Below, one piece after another: positions 3,880 through 51,749 of a stretch of DNA of 64,000 nt. The translations under genes and the position numbers were made by a program. The stretch lies in sequence record PQ488502.1; one strand, written 5' to 3'. This stretch comes from Escherichia phage BUCT632. Below the pieces are notes generated by a model. It saw nothing but the letters and a program-made list of their open reading frames with translations, was not told the origin of the DNA and did no database searches. Within the stretch, counting starts at the first letter, position 1, and each line of letters opens with the position of its first letter.

Positions 3880-4395
3880 ATGGCTAAGCAGAAAACCGCA
3901 AAAACTCAAGCAGCTCCGGCAGTTAAAACTTTCCCGCAGACCGAGGCTAATCGCAAAGCTCGTCTGGAACGCCACCTGCGTAAGCATCCTACCGATGCTC
4001 AGGCTGCTCAAGCACTGAATAATCCGGCTCCGATTCGTCAGAAGCCTAAGGCTAAAAATGCCACACGTCAATTCTACAAAATGGTTATGTATGTAGAAAA
4101 TTACGGCCACAAATCTGTCCCAGTTTCCCTGAGCTTCAACGCTGGGGCTGAATTGTTCTCTCGTAATGGTATGTCTATGAAAGACTATGAAAAGGCAGTT
4201 AACCAGAAGCGTAAACCAACAGCAGATGTATTGCGTGATACTCGTGGACAGTTTGGCTCTGTTAAACCAAATATCTTTGGCGTAGAGTATAGTAAAGATA
4301 ATGTTCGTGCTCTGTGTTACGGTGTAGGCATTAAGTTCACGGGTGATTCTGCTCGTAAATCTGCTAAACCAGCTCGTAAGCGTAAAGCGAAGTAA
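3880..4395 (+). CDS. Hypothetical lysine/arginine-rich protein (possible nucleic-acid binding)
   Basis: 171-aa ORF with basic N- and C-termini; followed by hairpin AGGGGC-GAAA-GCCCCT at 4405-4420. Confidence 0.5.
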   Translation: MAKQKTAKTQAAPAVKTFPQTEANRKARLERHLRKHPTDAQAAQALNNPAPIRQKPKAKNATRQFYKMVMYVENYGHKSVPVSLSFNAGAELFSRNGMSMKDYEKAVNQKRKPTADVLRDTRGQFGSVKPNIFGVEYSKDNVRALCYGVGIKFTGDSARKSAKPARKRKAK

Positions 4396-39615: not shown

Positions 39616-39960
39616 CTTATCCTACTGTATAAATATACAGTATTCCTATGCAGTGAATAATTCTAATATACCGCTAAAACGCTCTCAAAGATTGGAGGAG
39701 GCTTGAAAATTAGTTAGCCCGCTAACGATCACACAAGGCGACACGTAACACCCTAATCATTAGCAGGCTAACCATCGCGGGCGCTGTCAAATAAGAATGA
39801 TTCTTATTTGAGAATTGGGGGCACTTCCTGATAGTTGCGCCCCGTGATTATTATAGTAGTGGGCAATCGTTACGCTTTGCCCACTCCCGCCACTCATCTT
39901 GATGCCTAGACTTGCGACGGCGTACTAAAAACCGTTTGTACCAGTGATTAAACCATCGTT

Positions 39961-40164
39961 TCATAAATCTTCCTCCGGTAGTCGATGCGTGATTTTTTCC
40001 TCTTCCCCGTAGGAATCCACTAAATACTGATAATAACCATCGTGATCATAAATCACTTTATCATACTCGCCACGCTCGACCGCTTGTCTATTTTCCGGCG
40101 TATCGGGCACGTAAAAAACATCAACCATTGTGCTAGTTTTGGTCACAACAATTTTATTGCTCAT
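39961..40164 (-). CDS. Hypothetical protein
   Basis: 67-aa minus-strand ORF, first of a minus-strand block. Confidence 0.4.
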   Translation of the reverse strand: MSNKIVVTKTSTMVDVFYVPDTPENRQAVERGEYDKVIYDHDGYYQYLVDSYGEEEKITHRLPEEDL

Positions 40165-40216
40165 AATAACGCTCCGTTACTATATAATCTCGTTGCAATA
40201 CACCAAAATTATATAG

Positions 40217-40432
40217 TTACTCATATTCTAGCTCGAAAATATCCTCACCATATAATTTGATTAAATCAACTAAATAAAACGCTGTGCCAGTATTATTATT
40301 TCTCCTTATAAATCTATGATTCGCGTCTTTAAATACAGTGAATACATCACCTGTTTTACCTACTCCCCATAAATCCTGTGTTAATTTTACCCGTTTAACC
40401 TTTAGCAACATATTCCAAGTAATTTCATTCAT
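40217..40432 (-). CDS. Hypothetical protein
   Basis: 71-aa minus-strand ORF. Confidence 0.4.
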   Translation of the reverse strand: MNEITWNMLLKVKRVKLTQDLWGVGKTGDVFTVFKDANHRFIRRNNNTGTAFYLVDLIKLYGEDIFELEYE

Positions 40433-40788
40433 TGCGCCACCTTTCGAAACGCTGTTTCAATACTATCCGCAGTGGATTGAATATATGCGCCTTTCATTAT
40501 CAGGCGCTCGGTGCATACTTTGCGGAAAATATTAATAAAATCATCTTCATTTTCTGCAATTAATGCTTCCCCCATAACTTGAACGTCACAAGATGCAAAG
40601 GTCAAAAATTGAAACGCTAGTTCACGGGCAACGACCGCATTGATTTTATAATGCGCCTTGCCCTCATAAATATTAATAACGCCCTTATAAGCTGGGGAAA
40701 GCTGATTTAAGTAGTTTGCTAGTAATGCCGGACGGCAATTAGCAACAAAACGATTACCTTCATAAATAACCATTTGACAACCTCCCAA
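40429..40788 (-). CDS. Hypothetical protein
   Basis: 119-aa minus-strand ORF overlapping downstream gene by 4 nt. Confidence 0.4.
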   Translation of the reverse strand: MGGCQMVIYEGNRFVANCRPALLANYLNQLSPAYKGVINIYEGKAHYKINAVVARELAFQFLTFASCDVQVMGEALIAENEDDFINIFRKVCTERLIMKGAYIQSTADSIETAFRKVAQ

Positions 40789-40896
40789 TTATATAGCCGG
40801 ATAATAACATAAAGATCCCCAATGAAAGGGGATCATTCTTAAATAGGGTGGCTGTAAAACCGCCAACCATTGCAAGGATAATAACAATAACGCTTT

Positions 40897-41109
40897 TCAT
40901 AGCACCCCACGAAACGCAGCGTAAAAGGTGGCAAAATGTTTAACCGTTTCAGCGATCACGTTGCCGCGCTTATCAAATTTCTTTTCTGTAACACGAAAAG
41001 CGTTTTTATTACGTGCTACATATTCGATTTTACAATCTTCCCGCTCGAACGTGTTAACATCCACCAGCTTAAATCCTTTCGAACGTGCAAGAGAAACGTT
41101 ACGGATCAT
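40897..41109 (-). CDS. Hypothetical protein
   Basis: 70-aa minus-strand ORF. Confidence 0.4.
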   Translation of the reverse strand: MIRNVSLARSKGFKLVDVNTFEREDCKIEYVARNKNAFRVTEKKFDKRGNVIAETVKHFATFYAAFRGVL

Positions 41110-41307
41110 TTTTATTCTCCTTTACTAGTCATGCAGCCCAGCAGATAAGAAAACGCAGCAATGCCAGCGCCAATAATAACGGCGTGAACGCCAAAAGCTA
41201 TTGCAAATAACGATAAAATAGCGCCCAAGATACCCGCCAGAATAGCTCGAAAAATAATCATTTTTATTCTCCTAGTCAGTGGGGGATATAATATCCCCCG
41301 TTACTAA

Positions 41308-41538
41308 TTACATTAAAACAATTTTTGCGGCTTGTTTTTTAGTGCAATGTTCAGCTTTCAGGGTATCCAGCAAAAAGCCCGCCGTTTGCTGATCGATTTT
41401 ATCGGCGTTGTATAGTTCTTGGATGGTGTTATAAGTTTTAGCAATGCCGAACTCCTGCACCATTTCATGAATAACAACGCGATTGGACACCCAACCTTGA
41501 GCGGTAAACAGATGAGTAGCAGAAGAGTAAGCAACCAT
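41308..41538 (-). CDS. Hypothetical protein
   Basis: 76-aa minus-strand ORF. Confidence 0.4.
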   Translation of the reverse strand: MVAYSSATHLFTAQGWVSNRVVIHEMVQEFGIAKTYNTIQELYNADKIDQQTAGFLLDTLKAEHCTKKQAAKIVLM

Positions 41539-41642
41539 TTTAAGCCTCCAAATTTTTGGGAAATTTTCAATCCACCGTTTTGGTGTAAAGGCATTATAAC
41601 AAAAAAGGCCACCATAAAAGGCGACCTTTACAAAACTTTACA

Positions 41643-42137
41643 TTAGACTACTTGTAAGGATTCAACATTGAAACATCGTTTCAATTCGTCATGCAAAACA
41701 GCGTATTCCTCCCATCGGGTACTATCAGGAATATAAACAAGCTGTTTTAATCGATTTGCGTATATTACCGCTTTGTTATCGACTATCTCGACGCCGCCAT
41801 ATTTAATAATTAATTTCATGACGGAATTAATAGGATCGCCGCCGTTTACATATGTGCCGGATTTACTTAGCTGATAATGATAAAGGCTTGCATATACGTT
41901 TTCATTTTCATACCATTCGCCAGTTTCTTCGTCTTCATAGCCATCACTACCAAAACGAGAAGCATTATCAACAGCCATTTCCTGAGCAAAAGCGTCCAGA
42001 TCCGTACCAGCAGGAACAAAGTATTCCTCGGTGTTCCCTTCCCCGCAATAGCCAGTATGACAATCGACTAAAATGATCATATCATGTTTAGCCGTGCTTA
42101 CTTCCCCTAGCGAGAAGCCGTATTTTTCCTCAGCCAT
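41643..42137 (-). CDS. Hypothetical acidic protein
   Basis: 164-aa minus-strand ORF. Confidence 0.5.
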   Translation of the reverse strand: MAEEKYGFSLGEVSTAKHDMIILVDCHTGYCGEGNTEEYFVPAGTDLDAFAQEMAVDNASRFGSDGYEDEETGEWYENENVYASLYHYQLSKSGTYVNGGDPINSVMKLIIKYGGVEIVDNKAVIYANRLKQLVYIPDSTRWEEYAVLHDELKRCFNVESLQVV

Positions 42138-42202
42138 TTATTAGCCTCCTATTAATTAACAAGGGAATAGTAAAGTGGGGAAATAATCCCCACTAAATAT
42201 TA

Positions 42203-43213
42203 TTACTCGATTTCGGTGCTAGTGGTAAAAGTAGAAATATCAATACCTTTCACCATTTCATCAATCATTTCAGCGATGTTAAAACTTTGCACCATTTCCA
42301 GCATTGCCGCTTCCATAGCCGCCCCCGCTACCGCTTTCGCCTTTTGGTTACTCGGTGCGTACTGGTCAACCGCCACACTCAGCAGGTTAGCAATCACTAC
42401 TCGACCGATCGGCGTATCAATATAACCTTTAATCATAAACGGTGCTTTTTTAGCCGCTACTTTCGTAATTTGAGTCAGTGCAATTTTACCCGCTTCCAGT
42501 TTTGCAGCATTTACAACAGCGGATTTATTAGCGGCAACGATGTTAGCAATCTTGGTCATGGTGTTTTTTCCTTTGTTTTCAGTAGTTTGAGTATTAACGC
42601 TTTGAGTGTTAGAATTTACAGCATGGTTTTCTACGCTGTCAATAATCTGATCTTCATCTTTCCAGAAAGAAAAACCAGCGCTTTCTATATCCCCATCATA
42701 AATATACGGGTATAACTCCCGTGGTAACAAAAAATTACCATCGCCATCAAAAGCCATTATACCAGTATATTGAGATCCGTCGTTATCCGGCTTATGCCAT
42801 CCAGCGGGTAAATACTTCCAGATAACATCTAAAAATCCCTCAATGCTAGAAAGTCCATTTATCAGATCAAGCCCAATAAGCTCGAAACCATTTATATTAA
42901 ATGATTGACGGCCTGAATTGCTATGATACGCAACAATATTATTACCCTGCGTAATAATAAAATCGGCATCCGGCCCCGCTCCCCTGCCTGTAAAGATATG
43001 GCAATCCCGATTATATAAAACTAGCGTTGCCCCTTGTTTATATAACGGCAAAAAACCATCCATATCATAAGCGTCATAATCATCAAAAAAGTTTTGATGA
43101 ATAGTCTCAATCTTGTTAATAAAATGTTTAATGCTGGTTGACTTGCTACCGTCCAGCAGGTTGCGCAATGCACCCTTTAATACGGTGGCATTATCAGGTT
43201 TATACAGCCTCAT
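42203..43213 (-). CDS. Hypothetical protein
   Basis: 336-aa minus-strand ORF; start preceded (on minus strand) by AGGAGGCCGAACAA RBS. Confidence 0.55.
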   Translation of the reverse strand: MRLYKPDNATVLKGALRNLLDGSKSTSIKHFINKIETIHQNFFDDYDAYDMDGFLPLYKQGATLVLYNRDCHIFTGRGAGPDADFIITQGNNIVAYHSNSGRQSFNINGFELIGLDLINGLSSIEGFLDVIWKYLPAGWHKPDNDGSQYTGIMAFDGDGNFLLPRELYPYIYDGDIESAGFSFWKDEDQIIDSVENHAVNSNTQSVNTQTTENKGKNTMTKIANIVAANKSAVVNAAKLEAGKIALTQITKVAAKKAPFMIKGYIDTPIGRVVIANLLSVAVDQYAPSNQKAKAVAGAAMEAAMLEMVQSFNIAEMIDEMVKGIDISTFTTSTEIE

Positions 43214-43505
43214 TTGTTCGGCCTCCTCGTTAATCGGTGAGTGAATGATATAGATATTTGTTCACTAGGGGCAAGAAAAAAGAAAATGTTTTTTATTCCT
43301 TGCCTAGCGCCTATTTTTATGCTAACCGCGCAGCGGTGTAATAAAGAGCAAAAAACGGCGAAGCCACCAGGCCGCAGCATTGAGGCTTTACTTTACTATT
43401 ACCTTGCAGCGTTTAGCTCGTTAGAATGCGATTTAGGCCGCTTAAAATTGATTGCAGTTGTTAACACTACCTTTTTACCCTGTATATTTATACAGTGGAA
43501 TAACC

Positions 43506-43872
43506 TGTGGATAAGTCTGTGCAAAAGTCCTTATATCGCCGCCTATCGTGTCAAGTTATTTCGTGCTGTGGATAACGTTGTGGATAACTTAAATGATAGT
43601 GGTTCTCACTTAGGCCGATAGTTTCTTATAGTTATTATTTCTCATTAATTTATAAGTATATTATATATTATGAAATAGTTAGTTGGCTAATGAGATTTTT
43701 CGTGATTAATAGTCTGCTAATAGTTTACTCTGTTACAGTCCACCAGCATGATTATCATCCTAGCAATTATTATCCTGCTATCTTTCCGATACATACTAGC
43801 AAACAAAAGTCAATTAATTTATTTCATAAAATAAGTAGTTATCCACTGGAAAATAAAAGTCAAGTGGATAAC
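43506..43872. promoter_or_regulatory. Cluster of five DnaA-box matches in divergent intergenic region
   Basis: TGTGGATAA at 43506-43514, 43567-43575, 43579-43587; TTATCCAC at 43839-43846; GTGGATAAC at 43864-43872. Confidence 0.55.
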
Positions 43873-44751
43873 TAGGAAAATTTCATTTTTGCTTTTGGGG
43901 ATAAGTTATCAACAAGGCTAGAATGCGCCTAAAACGCCCTAGAACGCGATGAAGTTTTTAGCCATCCCATCATAAGGGGATAGGCCGTTTATCGCTGCCA
44001 CGAGCTTTTTGGATTTTGTCAAGTAGGGCAAAGCAAATATAAATGAAAAAATTACTTGCCTATCTGCTTTATTTTGTGGTATTCGCGCGCCCGTTTCTTT
44101 TAATTTTAGGCCATCGCCGCACGGTGTCCGGTGAGTTTTGTCTTTACGTTTCTTTACAAAAATAAGGTTGCGCCATTTTCGGGAATCCCCTATTATTTAT
44201 CACGTAGGGCGGCAATGACGAACTACACGGCGGGAAGTTTACCGCCACGCTCTTTAAAAATTGGGTACATCTTAAAGCCTATCGGCGGTAAACTTATACA
44301 TTATAAGGAATCGACGATATGAAACAAACGCTTTTGATCACTGGCAAGCCTATTAAGGCACTAGATAGCAAAACAAAAAATTTGTTGACAGTAGCTCAAA
44401 GATCAGTAAAATATAGATTCACGCAGTACAAGAAAGGCCGCCAGCAAGGTTTAGAAATGATCTGGCGCAATATTATGATTGACCTGAAGGAAAATCATAA
44501 AAAATTGCAAAAAATTGTTTGACACCCTAGCCGATAGGCTTTAAGATGTACTCAGTTCGATAAGAGCGATAACTTGATAAAATTTGACGGTCGGTGCTTA
44601 CCATAATGCATCCCGCCCCCTAACGGGATATAGCGGCCTACGTGGAGTTCTTTAAATTGATTATAGCGGCGGGAGGATTGTTACTTATTACCTGCTAGTA
44701 TTTTCTAGTAGGTAATGCGGAACAATCCCCAAATAACTAGGAGTTTATACT

Positions 44752-45003
44752 ATGCAAAACGTTATTACCGCGCCGAAAGTTGGTCAATCCGTCTTCATTC
44801 CTTTCGTTACTAAAACGGATGAATTAACCGGAAAAGCCGAACGTATTAAAGGTGCGGCGCTTATGCCGTTCGATACAATCGACGCGGTATATGCTGAAAA
44901 TGAACGCAGTAACAACGGCAAGCCGATTTATAACGTTCGCGTTAAATCCGGCGACGTTGTAAAGGTTGTTCAACGCAACGAAAAATGGGAAGCTGTATTG
45001 TAA
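44752..45003 (+). CDS. Hypothetical protein
   Basis: 83-aa ORF with AGGAGTTTATACT-ATG initiation context shared by neighbouring genes. Confidence 0.45.
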   Translation: MQNVITAPKVGQSVFIPFVTKTDELTGKAERIKGAALMPFDTIDAVYAENERSNNGKPIYNVRVKSGDVVKVVQRNEKWEAVL

Positions 45004-45104
45004 TGTAGTGTTAACTTTATATTCCCCTGAAATATGGGGAATATATGGATTAACATTTAGTTAATCATTAAATCCCTTAAATTAAACTAATAGGAGTTTT
45101 TACC

Positions 45105-45512
45105 ATGACTAACGCAAAAACCGCAAAATTCGCATGGAACGAAGAAAACACTCAGAAAGCTGTTTCTATGTATCAGCAGTTAATCAACGAAAACGGTTTA
45201 GATTTCGCAAATAGCGACGGTTTAAAAGAGATTGCAAAAGCAGTAGGCGCGGCTTCTCCCGTATCCGTTCGGTCAAAATTGACCAGTGCAAAAGCCTATC
45301 AAAAAAGCGATAAGCCGCGTAAAGTTGGCGGCGGTAGCTCTGTGCGTAAAGCTCACTATGTGCGCGTTATCGCTAAACATGCTATCGATTCCGGCATTAT
45401 CAAAGACGCCGATGATCTGGCAAGTCTGGAAAGTGCAAAACTTGAAACGCTGGACGCAGTAGCGCAATTGTTAGGCGTTGCTGATGAAGTAAAACAAGCC
45501 GCAGGCGAATAA
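45105..45512 (+). CDS. Hypothetical protein
   Basis: 135-aa ORF with shared AGGAGTTTTTACC-ATG context. Confidence 0.5.
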   Translation: MTNAKTAKFAWNEENTQKAVSMYQQLINENGLDFANSDGLKEIAKAVGAASPVSVRSKLTSAKAYQKSDKPRKVGGGSSVRKAHYVRVIAKHAIDSGIIKDADDLASLESAKLETLDAVAQLLGVADEVKQAAGE

Positions 45513-45513
45513 T

Positions 45514-45557
45514 AGTTATACCTTGCCCCCTTCTAGTGAGGGGGCAATAATATAACT
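45514..45557. other. Long palindromic hairpin (no U-tract) after gene
   Basis: AGTTATACCTTGCCCCC...GGGGGCAATAATATAACT. Confidence 0.5.
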
Positions 45558-45602
45558 GTTTAGCGATAGTTATTTTCTTCCCTTAAATCAGGAGTTTTAA
45601 AA

Positions 45603-45800
45603 ATGATTTTCTTCCCTACTGAATCTTTGATTCTAGGCTTGTTTATTATGGCGGCCTCATTATTGTTCGCTTATTTTCAAAATGATTTAGATTCGTATTA
45701 TTTTAAACGTAAATCTAAGTTAGCAAAACGTTTAGGTCTGCTTTGTTTTATCGCTGCCGTTGCTTGTGGTGTTAGTTCTAGCCTAGTGCCTTTAAATTAA
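45603..45800 (+). CDS. Hypothetical small membrane protein
   Basis: 65-aa ORF, two hydrophobic segments. Confidence 0.35.
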   Translation: MIFFPTESLILGLFIMAASLLFAYFQNDLDSYYFKRKSKLAKRLGLLCFIAAVACGVSSSLVPLN

Positions 45801-45890
45801 TGTTGCAAATTATAACGCCTATTATTTGAGGCGTTATATTTGGCAATATTGCCATTATTAATCTAATCCCTTTAATGGAGTTTTATTACT

Positions 45891-47561
45891 ATGATTATTT
45901 CCGCAGAAAAACAAACCGTTATCCTGAAAATGGCCGCTGACTTTAATTTCTATGGTAAACGTCTGCGCGCTACTAAACTGGAGGTCTGCGACGATATATC
46001 AAAAGCAGTCTACGATACAACGAAACATTCTACCGCCATTTGTGATTGGCTGGAAGCAAACAAACCAGCTAAACCGAAAGCGGCAAAAGTAGCAAAAGCC
46101 ATTAAAAACGACGAGCGCCCCGAAGCGGCTGGGATTGTTTCTAGTACGGTTGAGCAATGGGAAGTAAAACAGGGTAAACGTTTTATTATTACGTCGATTC
46201 AGAATAATACTTTCCCGCATAAAAACTTTTTAGCAAGTCTGGAAAAATTCGCTGAATATATCGGTGCCGATTTGCTTGTTTCTAAGTATATTTATAATAA
46301 AAACGGCTTCCAAAATGGAGAAGGTGCAGACGGAATCAAATATGATTCTGCGTTTGATAAATATATTTGCAGCAAAAACGTGTTTTTAAATAACCGCCGT
46401 TTTGCTTTCATGGCTGAAATTAATGTTTTGCCTACCGCAGATTATCCGCTTTCTGGATTCGCAGAAACTGCAACGGCTTTAAATATTGAAGGTCTGGCAA
46501 TTGGTCACGCTAAAATTACCGCTGAAAGCGTACCAGCTTTAAAAGGTGAAGTAGTGCGCCGTATGTACTCAACCGGAACGGCAACCCTCAAAAACTACAT
46601 TCAGCAGAAAGCAGGACAAAAGGCCGAGGCGCTGCATAACTTCGGTGCGCTGATTGTTGAGTTCGACGAGGACGGGGAATTTTTTGTTCGCCAGCTTGAA
46701 ACGATGGACGAAAGCGGGGTATTTTATGATCTGAATGTGTGCGCTACTCCTGCCGGATGCTATGAGACATCGGGGCATGTTTTAGGCTTGCAGTATGGTG
46801 ATATTCATGCAGAAAAACTAGATGAGGCTTGCGCTCAAGCGTCTTGGGGTCATGGTGATACTTATGGGCTTGTGGATATTCTCAAACCGAAATATCAGTT
46901 TGTACATGATGTGCATGATTTTACATCCCGCAATCATCATAACCGCGCTTCTGGTGTATTCCTAGCGAAACAGTACGCCGCCGGACGTGATAAGGTTATT
47001 GATGATCTTATCGATACGGGGCGCGTGCTGGAATCAATGGAGCGTGATTTTTCTCAAACAATCATTGTTGAATCAAATCACGATTTGGCGTTATCCCGTT
47101 GGCTGGATGATCGAAATGCTAACATCAAAGACGATCCAGCAAACGCCGAACTATATCACAGCCTAAACGCTGCAATCTATGCGGCTATTGCAAAGCAGGA
47201 CGATACTTTCAACGTGCTAGATTATGCCTTGCGTAAGGTAGCAGGTTGTGAATTTAACGCCATTTTCCTGACCACTGACCAATCATTTAAAATTGCAGGC
47301 ATTGAATGCGGCGTACACGGTCACAACGGCATTAACGGCAGCCGTGGCAACCCGAAACAATTTAAGAAATTGGGCAAGTTAAACACGGGGCATACGCATA
47401 CCGCCAGCATTTACGGTGGCGTTTATACCGCTGGCGTTGCTGGTAGTCTGGATATGGGTTACAACGTTGGCGCGTCAAGCTGGACGCAAACGCATTTAAT
47501 TACATACGCCAACGGCCAGCGCACTTTGATTGACTTTAAAAACGGCAAGTTTTTCGCATAA
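45891..47561 (+). CDS. A1: A1-like pre-early protein with calcineurin-like metallophosphoesterase motifs
   Basis: 556 aa (length matches recalled T5 A1); motifs GDIHAEKLD, HDVHDF, GHTHTASIY. Confidence 0.6.
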   Translation: MIISAEKQTVILKMAADFNFYGKRLRATKLEVCDDISKAVYDTTKHSTAICDWLEANKPAKPKAAKVAKAIKNDERPEAAGIVSSTVEQWEVKQGKRFIITSIQNNTFPHKNFLASLEKFAEYIGADLLVSKYIYNKNGFQNGEGADGIKYDSAFDKYICSKNVFLNNRRFAFMAEINVLPTADYPLSGFAETATALNIEGLAIGHAKITAESVPALKGEVVRRMYSTGTATLKNYIQQKAGQKAEALHNFGALIVEFDEDGEFFVRQLETMDESGVFYDLNVCATPAGCYETSGHVLGLQYGDIHAEKLDEACAQASWGHGDTYGLVDILKPKYQFVHDVHDFTSRNHHNRASGVFLAKQYAAGRDKVIDDLIDTGRVLESMERDFSQTIIVESNHDLALSRWLDDRNANIKDDPANAELYHSLNAAIYAAIAKQDDTFNVLDYALRKVAGCEFNAIFLTTDQSFKIAGIECGVHGHNGINGSRGNPKQFKKLGKLNTGHTHTASIYGGVYTAGVAGSLDMGYNVGASSWTQTHLITYANGQRTLIDFKNGKFFA

Positions 47562-47568
47562 TTAAATT

Positions 47569-47594
47569 TATAAGCTGGAAATATTTCCAGCTTA
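47569..47594. other. Perfect palindromic hairpin after A1-like gene
   Basis: ATAAGCTGGAAATATTTCCAGCTTAT. Confidence 0.5.
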
Positions 47595-47626
47595 TACCCT
47601 TATTAAATTAATTGGAGTTTATAACT

Positions 47627-48019
47627 ATGAAAAAGCAAAATATCCCATTCGATCGCGCTCAATCCTCAATCGTTCTGGTTTATTCTAATGGTGAACGTTA
47701 CCACGTCGAGGCGGGGCACGTTGTTGATGATTTAATCGAGTTTAACGAGGCGTTACAGATCACGACTTTCGCCTATACGCAAGGCCGCGCAAGTAGTCAC
47801 ATCAAGGCCGCTGGCGTTTATGTTGACACGGTGAAACAAGAAACGATTATCATCGACGCCGTAAAATCCGGCCTAGCCTTTGCAGTTGTCGCGCCTTGCC
47901 CCGCTTGCCTAGATGATCAGCTAACGAGTGCAAAGGTATATACCTGCGCGGGTATTCGTTCCAGTGTATCAGGTGAGGATGTTAGTTTTATCGCTGATGC
48001 GTTGGCTTATGGTCTTTAA
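47627..48019 (+). CDS. A2: A2-like pre-early protein (by position and size)
   Basis: 130-aa ORF immediately downstream of A1-like gene; ATG 47627 after GGAG. Confidence 0.45.
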   Translation: MKKQNIPFDRAQSSIVLVYSNGERYHVEAGHVVDDLIEFNEALQITTFAYTQGRASSHIKAAGVYVDTVKQETIIIDAVKSGLAFAVVAPCPACLDDQLTSAKVYTCAGIRSSVSGEDVSFIADALAYGL

Positions 48020-48098
48020 TAGTTAATTTATTATTACCCGCTTATAAATAGCGGGTAATGCTGAATTAATCTAATCCCTTAAATGGAGAACGTAACAA

Positions 48099-48833
48099 AT
48101 GAATAAAGCTATTATGAATATTTCCCGCAGCTTCCCGCATATTTCCCGCGTCATGATTTGGGATTTAGACGGCACTATCATTAATTCTTTCCATCGTGTA
48201 GCGCCTTGCTTTGATAGTGAGGGCAATTTAGATTTAAATAAGTATAAAAATGAAGCGTGTAAACATCATTTAATAATGCAGGATTCTTTATTGCCATTGG
48301 TTGAATACATGCGCCAATGTATGAATGACGCAAATACTTTAAATATTATTTGTACCGCTCGACTAATGAGCAAGTCGGACTATTATTATTTGCGTAAACA
48401 AGGTCTGCGCGGTCGTGGTAATAGTAATATCCGCGTGTTTTCCCGCGATACACTGCATAAATATTTTAAAGCTGATAAGGTTAGCGAGATATACCACAGC
48501 AAAGACGCAGTTTATAAATCTTATTATTTTGAATTATTTAAACAGCTATATCCGAACGCTGATTTTACGATGATTGATGATCATAAAGGCGTATTATCAG
48601 CGGCGGCATCATACGGATTTAAAACGCTGGACGCGCAAGCCGTTAACGATATTCTATCAATCGGGGTGGCATTGATAGGTGAAACCTTTATCGATGAATC
48701 GCTCGATGATGATAATGATTATCAGTTCCTAGCCGATCGTTTGAAATTATGTTGGGAAGGTATGACCGAGGAAGAACGCGCAGAATATAGTTGCAGCCCG
48801 CAACAATACATGGAGAAATTAAAAGTTGCATAA
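48099..48833 (+). CDS. dmp: HAD-family 5'-deoxynucleotidase (dmp-like)
   Basis: 244 aa; HAD motif I MIWDLDGTII near N-terminus; size and position consistent with recalled T5 dmp. Confidence 0.5.
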   Translation: MNKAIMNISRSFPHISRVMIWDLDGTIINSFHRVAPCFDSEGNLDLNKYKNEACKHHLIMQDSLLPLVEYMRQCMNDANTLNIICTARLMSKSDYYYLRKQGLRGRGNSNIRVFSRDTLHKYFKADKVSEIYHSKDAVYKSYYFELFKQLYPNADFTMIDDHKGVLSAAASYGFKTLDAQAVNDILSIGVALIGETFIDESLDDDNDYQFLADRLKLCWEGMTEEERAEYSCSPQQYMEKLKVA

Positions 48834-48847
48834 TAATTAAAGTTGAA

Positions 48848-48884
48848 ATAGTCACGGTGTGTAACGATAACATGCCGTGACTAT
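48848..48884. other. Hairpin with 10-bp perfect stem after dmp-like gene
   Basis: ATAGTCACGG...CCGTGACTAT. Confidence 0.5.
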
Positions 48885-48984
48885 TAGCTTGCTAAGTACC
48901 GGGCGGTAATGAGACTTATTCTCATCTCGGGGGGCACTGGACACACCTCCATGTGTAATCTTATGAAATTTGGCAAAAGTCAAA

Positions 48985-49230
48985 TTAGCGCATAGAAGGG
49001 TCATCAAACCTGTGTTCTGGTCTGAACTCACGGAATCTCTTCCGCGACGCCCGAGATCCATCCGACCACTCCCGATCAAACTCCGCACGTTTCTCGTCAA
49101 ACTTCCGCTCCCTTTCCGCAATCTCCCGCGCCACTTCCGCAATATATTTACGATGCTTGTTGATTGCCGCAGTCGTCCCGAAAACTCCCGCGAGTACCCC
49201 TATAATAAAAGCAATTACAATACTAAACAT
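48985..49230 (-). CDS. Hypothetical membrane-anchored protein
   Basis: 81-aa minus-strand ORF, N-terminal TM then Arg/Glu-rich tail; two shorter membrane ORFs follow upstream on the same strand. Confidence 0.35.
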   Translation of the reverse strand: MFSIVIAFIIGVLAGVFGTTAAINKHRKYIAEVAREIAERERKFDEKRAEFDREWSDGSRASRKRFREFRPEHRFDDPSMR

Positions 49231-49639
49231 TATTTATATTCCCGTAGCTTACGTTCAATACGAGCTAAGTGGTTATCCAAGACACATTGCCCTAGAATTA
49301 CCACAACTAATAAAACAATAATTATTACCTCCATTAAAGCCACCCCGCCATAGCTGCTAACCAAAAGCCTACGAAGATTAGGAATAATACAAAACCAAAT
49401 CCGTAAATATTAATCCACGCTTCATACACTTCTCCGCGTCTGCTCTTTCTTTTGTTTGGCATATCTTTCACTCTCCAATAAATATGGTATTTTAAAGTAT
49501 TTTATAGTTTGTACATAACCAACCATGCTCGTGACTTCCTAGAAGGACTTCTACTTTTCTCACATAGTGGTTTCTGCTAGTACACCATCCAAGAAATAAA
49601 AAATTTAGTTTACTTGGATGTCTTTTTGCTTTATACTAA

Positions 49640-49906
49640 TTACAGGTAGTTAGATTGCTCTAGTTTAAATTTACAATCACCATATTTAAGGTCAAACTGA
49701 CTGAGATCCCACCACCCAAACTTAGTACGGAGCTGTACTACTGGGAATCGATCTCCCTTAATACGAACTTTTTGAACCTTGAGGCCGTAATGTTCTTCTC
49801 CCGCACCACCAAAAGATTTTACAAATCCAGTACAAAATGGTTTGGGAGCAGGTGCACAACCAGATAACATAACTGCGGCAACTAGTGCAATCACAAACTT
49901 TTTCAT
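49640..49906 (-). CDS. llp: Lipoprotein, Llp-like (candidate receptor-blocking superinfection exclusion protein)
   Basis: signal peptide with lipobox LSGC; small; divergent from adjacent receptor-binding protein gene as recalled for T5 llp-oad. Confidence 0.5.
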   Translation of the reverse strand: MKKFVIALVAAVMLSGCAPAPKPFCTGFVKSFGGAGEEHYGLKVQKVRIKGDRFPVVQLRTKFGWWDLSQFDLKYGDCKFKLEQSNYL

Positions 49907-49991
49907 ATTTATCTCTCCATTTCTAATTTATGAGTATATTATAGCAAAATAGAGAGATGAAAGCAAATACATTTTTATAATAGGAGATTAT

Positions 49992-51749
49992 ATGGGTTTT
50001 TTCGCTGGAAAATATAGCGATGGTAAGACCGTACTATCTTTAAATACTGAATCTGGTGGTGACATTAATCGTCACTATAGTCCAAATGCCAATAGTATTT
50101 TTCATAGTGATATGCCATTTGTCCTAGTTGATGGTACTTATGAGTCTGGGTTAGGTGATGCCGGTAATGGGTTTTTTGTATGTCAGATGCCCTCTGACAT
50201 AATAAATATTAAATCCAATGACCCCGGTAGAGTTATATTAACTGCTATTGAGATTAATGGTACTCACAGAGCTTTTCTTAATGGTACTCAGAGTAAGGTG
50301 GGTCAAACTATAGTTGCCACTCAAGCAGATCCTTTTAGATCTTTTGCTAGTGTTTCCCAGACTAGTGGATTTGCATTTGGTAATAGCCTGGCATCTGGTA
50401 CATATAACTATAATCCATCTATAGGACATGAAGAATCTATTTCTAGGAATGGTACAGGGGGTACTACCTTACATAGTACGTATCATGGTATAGTTAGGCC
50501 AGGTGCAGGAGCTCCAGTAGGTATTACTGTTGCAGAAGCTTTTGCACAGTTAGGATTCCCTACTAATAGTAGTACAGTACCTATAGATAGTAATAACCAA
50601 TATTACTGGGACCCAGGATGGATGTCTCCTTTAGGATCAGCACACAGAGGGCACGATTGGTTTTATGTTTGTAACTCTAACATACGTGGGTATGGTGGGG
50701 TAAGACAAGGTCTTCCTGGTAATGTAAATACTATGTATCATGATGGGGGTAATAGATTTGTTTGTAGAGGTTCTACAACTAATTTAGCTAATCAATCTGG
50801 TAACGCTACAATATTACAGGATTGGTATAACATAACCCCTACTAAAGTTATTTGGTACGTTTTGAATTTAAGATACTCAAATGGTAATATGGGTATTTCT
50901 GGTAATCCTTTTACTGGCTCAGATATTCTTATCTCTCCCTCTAATTTTACTATAAAAGGGGTTAGTTTACCGAATACTGGGTATAAGTTTATCAACCAAA
51001 ATGCTTTTGGTAACTTAGGTTATAGACCAGATATGGAATATATTGGAAATAACGCAGCGTACACCGGGGCCTTTGGGGATACCACTGCAAGATGTGAACT
51101 TGTAGGTTCTAGTAACGGGAGTTTATGGTCTCCTGTAGACTATGGAGGGGCTAAGTCTCAAATTAGTATTTACAAATTCGGAGCTGGTAAGCAATGGTAT
51201 GTAAATTCTAATGATAATACTATCGGTAATGAACACGGGGTTGTTTGGGGGCCTTCAGCAGTTCCACTACGACTTTTTAGCGGAAATGTTGGTAGTTCTT
51301 ACATGGGGGATGATATTACTCCCAGCTATCCAGGAACTGGAGATAGATACGTTGGTTTATCAACTATTGGGCTAGGTATACCGGGTGGCAATGCTACTGT
51401 AATTCTTACCACTGAAGTTATATCAGGTAATCTTAACTGTGCAGGTGTTCCTGCTAATACATGGAATAACGGTGTGTTTCAAGTGCAGGGAAGAAGAGCA
51501 TATAGTTATAGTAATGGAGACGCGATATTCCACCAGATTTTAACACTACCAGTAGGGTATTTAGTACCTTTTCATACTACATCTGCTTTTAGATACACAC
51601 CTAACAATGCCCTAAGTAGAAATAGTTTTATATACACTGCTAAAAATCTGGGGAACGGAAATGTAGAGTTAGGGGTAGTTATGCACGTAAGTTTAGGTAG
51701 TGCAGTTTTTCTACCTAGATTAAGAGTAACAGTTCAACGCCTTACCTAA
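49992..51749 (+). CDS. Receptor-binding tail protein (pb5/Oad-like candidate)
   Basis: 585-aa Gly/Asn/Ser/Thr-rich ORF between Llp-like gene and terminase genes. Confidence 0.45.

Follow-up and report, generated by a model that had tools for sequence, protein, structure and literature searches.

A conserved C-rich leader element of pre-early genes in T5-like phages and its possible pairing with the Shine-Dalgarno sequence

The 64,000-nucleotide stretch of DNA of Escherichia phage BUCT632 that was analysed here (sequence record PQ488502.1; hereafter the window, numbered from its first letter) raises the question of why one short, C-containing sequence recurs directly in front of several genes of its pre-early region, and whether it acts there as DNA or as RNA. 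An earlier inspection of the letters and open reading frames of the window (hereafter the sequence-only reading) had noticed near-identical 23-nt motifs upstream of the homologues of genes A1 and dmp and had offered two functions for them, that of a promoter and that of a translational element. Our results indicate that T5-like phages have in this motif a real and conserved leader module, specific to the class of pre-early polycistronic mRNAs, which very probably works at the RNA level as part of the translation-initiation region. As for its mode of action, we tentatively favour, at somewhat less than an even chance, a model in which the C-rich part of the motif (C-box) serves as a built-in anti-Shine-Dalgarno partner, predicted from sequence comparisons and folding to close a small, A-bulged hairpin across the ribosome-binding site.

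The C-box, its conservation and its class specificity

Judged by its sequence, the phage of the window is T5-like (Tequintavirus). Hundreds of T5-like phages of Tequintavirus and Epseptimavirus share 82-93% identity with region 44000-49000, and the genes matched in them bear the annotations A2, A1, and dmp, and comparison with the annotated T5 record places the region of first-step transfer (FST), which is the pre-early region, at 39900-49500. The near-identical pair of 23-nt motifs is real: a pattern search of the window found it before A1 at 45858-45880 (TTAATCTAATCCCTTTAATGGAG, 1 mismatch) and before dmp at 48066-48088 (TTAATCTAATCCCTTAAATGGAG, exact), both on the plus strand, with no further copies at up to three mismatches in the window and none in 100 shuffles. 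The A1 copy consists of TTAATCTA, the C-box AATCCCTTTAAT (45865-45876), and GGAG (45877-45880). In the dmp copy the C-box AATCCCTTAAAT (48073-48084) is followed by GGAG (48085-48088), and the first five bases (48066-48070) are the 3' foot of an upstream stem-loop. Both copies score 18.9 bits with a weight matrix built from orthologous box sites, in which at least 15 bits was taken as a strong match.

The 11-nt core of the box, WWTCCCTTWAAT, is common to six paralogous leaders, namely those of A1, dmp, A2, T5.005, T5.002, and one gene of the divergent operon. Before A2 (ATG 45105) the box AATCCCTTAAAT at 45071-45082 (+; 17.8 bits) is exact, as had been claimed, with the Shine-Dalgarno GGAG at 45093-45096, 16 nt past CCC. 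The second shortened copy proposed by the sequence-only reading, before T5.005 (a small membrane protein; ATG 45603), is imperfect: CTTCCCTTAAAT at 45577-45588 (+; 15.2 bits; GGAG 45591-45594) agrees at 10 of 12 positions and is exact solely in its CCCTTAAAT core. Three further sites had been missed, i.e., the T5.002 box ATACCCTTATTAAAT at 47594-47608 (+; GGAG 47614-47617, ATG 47627), the box ATTCCCTTGTTAAT at 42168-42155 (-; GGAG 42149-42145) before a 164-aa gene of the divergent operon (ATG 42137), and a weak, variable C-run, AATCCCCAAATAAC, at 44724-44737 (+) before T5.007 (ATG 44752), which overlaps the 3' arm of the leader stem-loop there. The gap between box and GGAG varies from 6 to 16 nt between genes (6 nt in A1 and dmp) and is constant for each gene. 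A GGAGTTT initiation context, previously ascribed to all the leaders, is found in those of A2, T5.005, A1, T5.002, and T5.007; the dmp leader has GGAGAAC.

Orthologous leaders were gathered from 57 viral loci and from annotated records. Among unique leaders CCC is kept in all those of A1 (32/32), A2 (25/25), and dmp (27/27), and the C-box is present in 25 of 26 T5.005 leaders, 19 of 22 T5.002 leaders, and 11 of 11 leaders of the minus-strand gene. Across some 40 T5-like genomes CCC never changes before A1, A2, and dmp, although the 5' flanks are replaced. The consensus of the box is w-w-T-w-A-T-CCC-T-T-w-A-A-t, with G at 0-7% throughout this stretch. Conservation does not extend to the first third of the 23-mer on its 5' side (TTAATCTA), and the A1 leader of T5 reads CGTTTTTTAATCCCTTTAATGGAG. 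At least three unrelated sequences abut the 5' side of the T5.002 box in different phages, and the box therefore belongs to the downstream gene. The C-run of T5.007 is unconserved, being CCCC in 15 of 27 leaders and CCA or CCG in the others.

A looser form, W-CCC-W-W-A-A...GGAG, precedes most internal pre-early genes of Klebsiella phages, Erwinia phage KEY, Proteus phage 1, and two other genera; the phages in which the box persists include L042 and L044. It persists in genera whose A1 is just 31-46% identical. Leaders of the Vibrio Demerecviridae, otherwise unalignable, carry a degenerate AACC(C/U) form, and the box is absent from A1-like loci outside the Demerecviridae. The sequence-only reading had made its proposal depend in part on conservation of the motif in relatives, and the motif is conserved. 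In the A2 leader of one T5-like IMG/VR contig (L007) the 5' part of the motif is tandemly duplicated (AATCTAATCTAATCCC), which suggests slippage or recombination at an A/T-rich repeat.

The box is confined to one temporal class of genes. With the weight matrix four sites of the window reach 15 bits or more, each of them in a box leader, against a mean of 0.33 and a maximum of 2 in 30 shuffles. In T5 (111 kb) all three matches of at least 15 bits are pre-early leaders, and five of the six above 13.5 bits represent the leaders of dmp, T5.002, A1, and A2; the T5.005 leader scores 11.4 bits there, and the single early-gene match falls within a promoter spacer. By the gene calls made in this analysis, the box is carried by 6 of 16 FST genes versus 1 of 80 other genes (Fisher p = 5e-5), and in the whole 64-kb window CCCTT[AT] followed by GGAG, ATG, and a real open reading frame occurs in the FST region only. 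In either of the divergent operons the box invariably reads in the sense direction, and neither the first cistron behind a promoter nor coupled genes that overlap carry it. A scan of viral contigs for ATCCCTTWAAT-N(0-12)-GGAG returned single matches in many contigs and added no new families; the four loci with more than one match all lie within three T5-like genomes that also carry A1.

Early genes of the window have another, promoter-linked leader type, TATAAT...CATAAATTGA...GAGG. The restriction of the motif to pre-early genes and its difference from the early promoters, both proposed earlier, are borne out by these data. Across the early region (3400-36000; e.g., at 3880, 5474, 6791, 12155, and 32320) the genes share TATAAT-ATAyTT-CATAAATTGA-(6-12 nt)-GAGG/AGGA, and each of them apparently has a promoter of its own and a leader of about 20 nt, as opposed to the operon-plus-module layout of the pre-early genes.

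Possible pairing of the C-box with the Shine-Dalgarno sequence

According to the model that we favour, the pre-early polycistronic mRNAs would be made from the P-H22 and P-D/E20 promoters on the plus strand and from a divergent promoter on the minus strand, and the motif would act as a cis-acting RNA element in the 5' leaders of their internal cistrons. Within a single-stranded A/U stretch, the C-box (WWUCCCUUWAAU) would be the sole C-rich feature and GGAG the sole G-rich one. Its CC would pair with both Gs of G-A-G, leaving the A bulged, and one or two added pairs would extend the helix to CCC(U) with (A)GG-A-G. The small hairpin so formed would hold the ribosome-binding site and may set or regulate the translation initiation of toxic, first-expressed genes, either alone or as a handle for a factor.

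Complementarity of the CCC(U)/(A)GG-A-G type is found in all six box leaders of the window, and a pairing of the box with GG(A)G is predicted by RNAfold as well as alifold for dmp, A2, and T5.005. The two partners also change together. In Vibrio phage Javier the box matches a changed Shine-Dalgarno sequence in both the A1 leader (CCGC-AAAA-GCGAG) and the dmp leader (CCGC-AUAA-GCGAG), and in two close relatives of this phage (dmp 91% identical) both sides have switched to CCC...GGAG. Matching changes occur in the dmp leader of 70E34-5 (CCGC...GCGAG), in the A1 (CCAC...GUGAG), dmp (CCUC...GAGAG), and A2 (CCUA...UAGAG) leaders of JSF12, and in the A1 leader of VCPH (CCUC...GAGAG). In those leaders that have GGAG, the base after CCC tends to match the base before GGAG, with flanks such as CCCG/CGGAG (dmp of Erwinia phage KEY and A1 of L279), CCCA/UGGAG (6/6), and CCCU/AGGAG (11/25).

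For a quantitative evaluation the box was defined as the last C-run within 26 nt and the Shine-Dalgarno sequence as the GAG 4-13 nt from the start, complementarity not being used in either definition. Among the unique combinations the third pair is of Watson-Crick type in 43 of 50 (shuffle mean 30.6) and the fourth in 25 of 50 (shuffle mean 14.5; P = 0.0005). The covariation score of 90 distinct box/Shine-Dalgarno pairs is 0.139, compared with 0.073 +/- 0.012 in shuffles, none of 500 of which reaches it, and the score does not exceed 0.066 in any slid register. In these 90 pairs the third position comprises CG (75), UA (4), GC (3), AU (1), UG (1), and other combinations (6), and the fourth UA (25), AU (8), CG (6), GU (3), GC (2), UG (1), and others (45).

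Against 0.43 for 67 further genes in the window, the predicted accessibility of the Shine-Dalgarno sequence is 0.22-0.31 (mean 0.26) in box genes (p = 0.038, one-sided Mann-Whitney test), and an in silico change of CCC to AAA raises it in four of six leaders. In the predicted ensembles the Cs of the box pair with the Shine-Dalgarno Gs in A2, T5.005, and dmp (about two of three pairs) and not in A1. What the data establish is that the box exists, is class-specific, conserved, and in sense orientation, stands beside conserved stem-loops, and is complementary to the Shine-Dalgarno sequence and co-varies with it; it is by inference that we take the two to pair in vivo and to affect translation.

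Several points weigh against this model. The isolated mini-helix is marginal, with a predicted free energy of -1.0 to +2.5 kcal/mol and loops of up to 16 nt, and the box of the A1 leader is 83% unpaired in the predicted ensemble. The fourth pair is present in just half of the sequences, the fifth is not formed, and enteric phages do not conserve a perfect anti-Shine-Dalgarno CUCC. Pairing leaves unexplained the conservation of the flanks among paralogous sites, where T precedes CCC and TT and AAT follow it. As to the statistics, the first two pairs are fixed by the definitions of the box and of the Shine-Dalgarno sequence, the shuffle controls ignore the phylogenetic relatedness of the sequences, and the informative cases other than CCC/GGAG reach Watson-Crick pairing in 7 of 14 (P = 0.06).

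Leader architecture and alternative explanations

Each module begins with a long, stable stem-loop, followed by a G-free A/U spacer that holds the C-box, then GGAG 6-16 nt downstream, and ATG; in this otherwise A/U-only leader the sole Cs are those of the box and the sole Gs those of the Shine-Dalgarno sequence. On the plus strand the stem-loops lie between T5.007 and A2 (45001-45063; 24 pairs, -26 kcal/mol; 8 of 18 consensus pairs compensatory), between A2 and T5.005 (45505-45564; 22 pairs; T5 has another hairpin there), between T5.005 and A1 (45798-45851, possibly more than one; 21 pairs; 7 of 18 compensatory), between A1 and T5.002 (47569-47596; 12 pairs), and between T5.002 and dmp (48022-48070; 20 pairs; 5 of 13 compensatory). 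The last of these starts at the upstream stop codon and is replaced by unrelated hairpins in other phages. On the minus strand a stem-loop (42169-42207) precedes the C-box. The stems have 20-24 pairs before A2, T5.005, A1, dmp, and T5.007, and 12-13 before T5.002 and the minus-strand gene, and they start at or near the upstream stop codon. Alignments of orthologues show compensatory changes and few broken pairs. Given these changes and the replacement of whole hairpins, it is therefore the structure of the stem that is selected and its sequence that is free, the opposite of what holds for the box. Most stems are followed by no U-run and so are not classical terminators.

The distance from the foot of the hairpin to the box varies from 0 to about 20 nt, and in many phages T5.002 has no hairpin before its box, yet the box stays beside the Shine-Dalgarno sequence. 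A related arrangement was noted for T5.003, which is absent from the window phage; in its T5 leader (1649-1720, -) the order is reversed, i.e., C-run (TTATTCCCCT), hairpin, GGAG. The stem-loop region before A1 includes a perfect palindrome of 14-15 nt, TTGGCAATATTGCCA (45840-45854, +), just upstream of the A1 box. T5-like phages conserve its sequence as well as its structure, and it can still be recognised in phages of Klebsiella and Erwinia. By its look it could be the operator of a dimeric DNA-binding protein, or else another small hairpin.

Homologues of the plus-strand genes start at 44319 (T5.008/hdi), 44752 (T5.007), 45105 (A2), 45603 (T5.005), 45891 (A1), 47627 (T5.002), and 48099 (dmp), all with ATG, and the divergent pre-early operon runs from 43213 downwards on the minus strand, as found by comparison with the T5 record. 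A sigma-70 scan recovered the homologues of the two strong T5 pre-early promoters upstream of the plus-strand operon, P-H22 at 44385-44412 (TTGACA-16-TAAAAT; 11/12 to the consensus), which drives the box-carrying operon, and P-D/E20 at 44519-44547 (TTGACA-17-TAAGAT; 10/12). Experimental characterisation exists for just three FST promoters, of which none lies at the boxes (preprint), and dmp, A1, and A2 have been treated as one likely operon (preprint).

These data bear directly on the proposal that each gene has in its box a weak internal sigma-70 promoter, which we consider very improbable. An A/T hexamer is often found 5' of CCC (TAATCT; TATAAT in the T5.005 leader of T5), and TTGGCA-16-TCTAAT stands upstream of A1 in the window, but a sigma-70 consensus scan of 39900-49900 gave no site that uses the box. 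The -35 element is unconserved, the DNA in its place being a hairpin with compensatory changes or, in T5.002 leaders, unrelated sequence. The TAnnnT pattern is inconsistent, since the hexamers 5' of CCC are TCTAAT, TTAAAT, TTTCTT, and CTTATA, several of which lack the A2/T6 signature, and conservation falls on TCCCTT, a sequence not read by sigma-70. In A1 and dmp, with their 6-nt gap, the start site would fall on or past GGAG and leave the transcript without a leader. No published 5'-end mapping of internal pre-early transcripts was found in the literature. Of the two functions offered by the sequence-only reading, the promoter is thus not supported, no sigma-70 site using the motif, and the translational element agrees with the anatomy of the leaders, the sense orientation of the box, and its covariation with the Shine-Dalgarno sequence. 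Hardly more probable than the promoter is a signal read by RNA polymerase together with a pre-early factor, e.g., A1, on the non-template DNA or the nascent RNA, which would act as a pause, terminator, or roadblock and shut pre-early transcription gene by gene. It would be in line with the co-purification of A1 with RNA polymerase and the requirement for A1 in pre-early shut-off (PMC7472727; preprint), and reading of the non-template strand predicts sense orientation equally well; the tight positioning relative to the Shine-Dalgarno sequence and the covariation would, however, be unexpected, and no known polymerase-associated element resembles the box. We find it hardly credible that the similarity of the leaders is functionless, a leftover of duplication or of gene-cassette recombination. 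The gene-content breakpoints upstream of T5.002 do coincide with the 5' edge of the box, but the invariance of CCC in the leaders of essential genes of about 40 genomes, while neighbouring bases turn over, and the persistence of the box beside highly diverged A1 genes both speak against it.

We regard it as improbable that the box is an RNA-processing mark, in which case the pre-early transcript would be cut at the intercistronic stem-loops (by RNase III) or in the A/U stretch (by RNase E), and each monocistronic mRNA would have its new 5' end defined or protected by the box. The irregular stems of 20-24 bp are of RNase III substrate size, begin from the upstream stop codon, and are kept by compensatory change, and their lack of U-runs also suits this explanation. 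The box, though, stays beside the Shine-Dalgarno sequence even where T5.002 has no hairpin and lies at a variable distance from the hairpin foot elsewhere, it seems unlike the R-N↓W-U-U preferred by RNase E, and no literature linking T5 with RNase III was found. The main, serious rival of the anti-Shine-Dalgarno model, possible although in our view unlikely, is that the box is a sequence-specific single-stranded RNA site for a protein, independent of Shine-Dalgarno pairing. Its ligand might come from the phage or from the host (e.g., S1 or a KH-domain protein), and the box would be a class-specific translational operator or enhancer, like the targets of T4 RegA/RegB. Such a site explains better than the anti-Shine-Dalgarno model why 11 nt (WWTCCCTTWAAT), reaching beyond CCC, are common to six paralogous leaders and conserved. 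It would also fit the distance to the Shine-Dalgarno sequence, which floats between genes and is constant for each, the mostly unpaired state predicted for the box in several leaders, and the difference between the enteric and Vibrio boxes in spite of a conserved ribosome, which suggests co-evolution with a phage factor. Pre-early shut-off requires A1 by a mechanism that recent papers state to be unknown (PMC10644984; preprint), and this too could be accommodated. Against a protein site, a Pfam scan of ten pre-early proteins of the window found DUFs only and no RNA-binding family, and covariation of the box with the Shine-Dalgarno sequence is not predicted by this model. A further reading, in which the C-box/GGAG mini-hairpin is the operator of a pre-early-specific post-transcriptional switch and an FST-encoded, possibly A1-dependent factor binds it on all internal cistrons and shuts off their translation together, seems to us about as doubtful as the processing mark.

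Other known elements were compared with the box and rejected. It matches lambda boxA at 6 of 9 positions (C3, C5, U6, U7, A8, A9), but U replaces G2, and G2U abolishes NusB-NusE binding and antitermination, boxA function being abolished by G2U, C5A, and U6G (PMC3177189). A near-canonical boxA, CGCTCTTTAAAAATTGGG, does occur elsewhere in the operon, at 44246-44263 (+), about 60 nt upstream of the T5.008/hdi start, so the C-box is a different signal. This boxA occupies the same place in L001 (T5), L002, L003, L004, L042, and L044, being conserved from T5 to phages of Klebsiella, Erwinia, and Proteus, and together with its spacer it is almost identical to that of lambda nutL. Its presence suggests that Nus factors bring about antitermination in the pre-early operon, in which case transcription would run through the hairpins between the cistrons. 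Another, weaker string of boxA type, GAGTTCTTTAAATTG, is found at about 44647-44661 (+) within the leader 44560-44750; this leader, about 200 nt between P-D/E20 and T5.007, is highly structured (-57 kcal/mol) and conserved in T5.

The T5 nick site has, according to the T5 record, the consensus 5'-N Pu pGCGC N-3' and lies on one strand only, and the box lacks GCGC and is present on both strands, according to the direction of the gene. The covariance models of Rfam 15 detected no family at the box, and in 39900-49900 they gave two chance-level matches only, both away from it (E = 0.23 and 0.85). By eye, DnaA or IHF boxes gave partial matches only, and sigma-32 or sigma-54 sites (CCCCATNT; TGGCA-N-TTGC) are unfit in geometry and spacing. 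A PeSL cassette boundary was likewise discarded, a stem-loop being there but no early promoter being detected after it. In ungapped scans of 16S and 23S rRNA, the core box showed no unusual complementarity; a 9-nt match of AUCUAAUCC (the TCTAATCC variant) to 16S positions 785-793 (the 790 loop) is reached by 5% of shuffles, and the matching TCTAATCC part belongs to the non-conserved 5' portion of the motif. Our literature search found no description of the motif, of internal pre-early starts, of RNase III processing, or of boxA in T5, although a prior mention is possible (Davison 2015 review).

Some features of the wider region were also observed. The divergent pre-early operons are separated by a non-coding gap (43500-43870) with a cluster of DnaA-box-like sequences (TGTGGATAA / TTATCCACT). 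At the corresponding position T5 has, upstream of T5.009 of its leftward operon, the homing endonuclease gene hegG, which the window lacks. The leftmost gene of T5 is dmp, and in the window a gene for a 585-aa receptor-binding protein (49992-51749) follows it within about 1.1 kb (48834-49990). It therefore seems that the two terminal repeats have been collapsed in the assembly into one copy, which adjoins the unique region at its right end. A BF23 record is likewise matched by the end of the window.

Significance and comparison with known systems

The pre-early genes of T5, A1, A2, and dmp among them, serve host takeover and the two-step injection of DNA, and the leader module offers a concrete, mutable handle on their fast expression and shut-off. 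The class-wide operator reading, if true, would explain the A1-dependent shut-off of pre-early expression in T5. The module marks pre-early cistrons in unannotated genomes of Demerecviridae, and it could serve as a compact, insulating translation-initiation cassette.

Partial likenesses to several phage systems can be seen. The early region of T7 is also a first-expressed polycistronic operon transcribed by the host polymerase, with RNase III sites in irregular stem-loops of about 20 bp between its genes. Irregular stems of about 20 bp or more between cistrons are found here in the neighbouring stem-loops and not in the motif itself, and the conserved element, in contrast to T7, is a single-stranded box outside the stem, the sequences of the stems not being conserved between sites. 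PeSL cassettes of T4-type phages similarly combine a stem-loop with a short conserved motif by small early genes, and the breakpoints at the motif of T5.002 recall them, but the PeSL motif is a sigma-70 early promoter, which is not detectable here. The epsilon enhancer of T7 gene 10 is likewise an A/U-rich element just upstream of the Shine-Dalgarno sequence of a phage gene; it differs from the core box in that the latter has no unusual complementarity to 16S or 23S rRNA.

A further likeness is to the targets of T4 RegA and RegB, which are short signals in or beside the ribosome-binding site of many genes of the early class and plausible handles for class-wide shut-off. In T4 the RegB site is GGAG itself and RegA sites overlap AUG, whereas the C-rich box described here is separate and lies upstream. 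No counterpart protein is recognisable among the pre-early proteins of the window, and no T5 protein is known to correspond to RegA or RegB.

Under the anti-Shine-Dalgarno model the nearest relatives of the module would be hairpins that sequester the Shine-Dalgarno sequence, such as those of the early transcripts of T4 lysozyme (e) and gene 49 and those of the ROSE and fourU RNA thermometers. What they have in common with it is an upstream pyrimidine element, from a few to about 16 nt away, that is complementary to the gene's own Shine-Dalgarno sequence and whose partners co-vary. The differences are that the module has 3-5 pairs, a bulged A, and marginal predicted stability, that no alternative-transcript or temperature logic is evident in it, and that it is repeated, family-wide, before nearly every internal gene of one temporal class.

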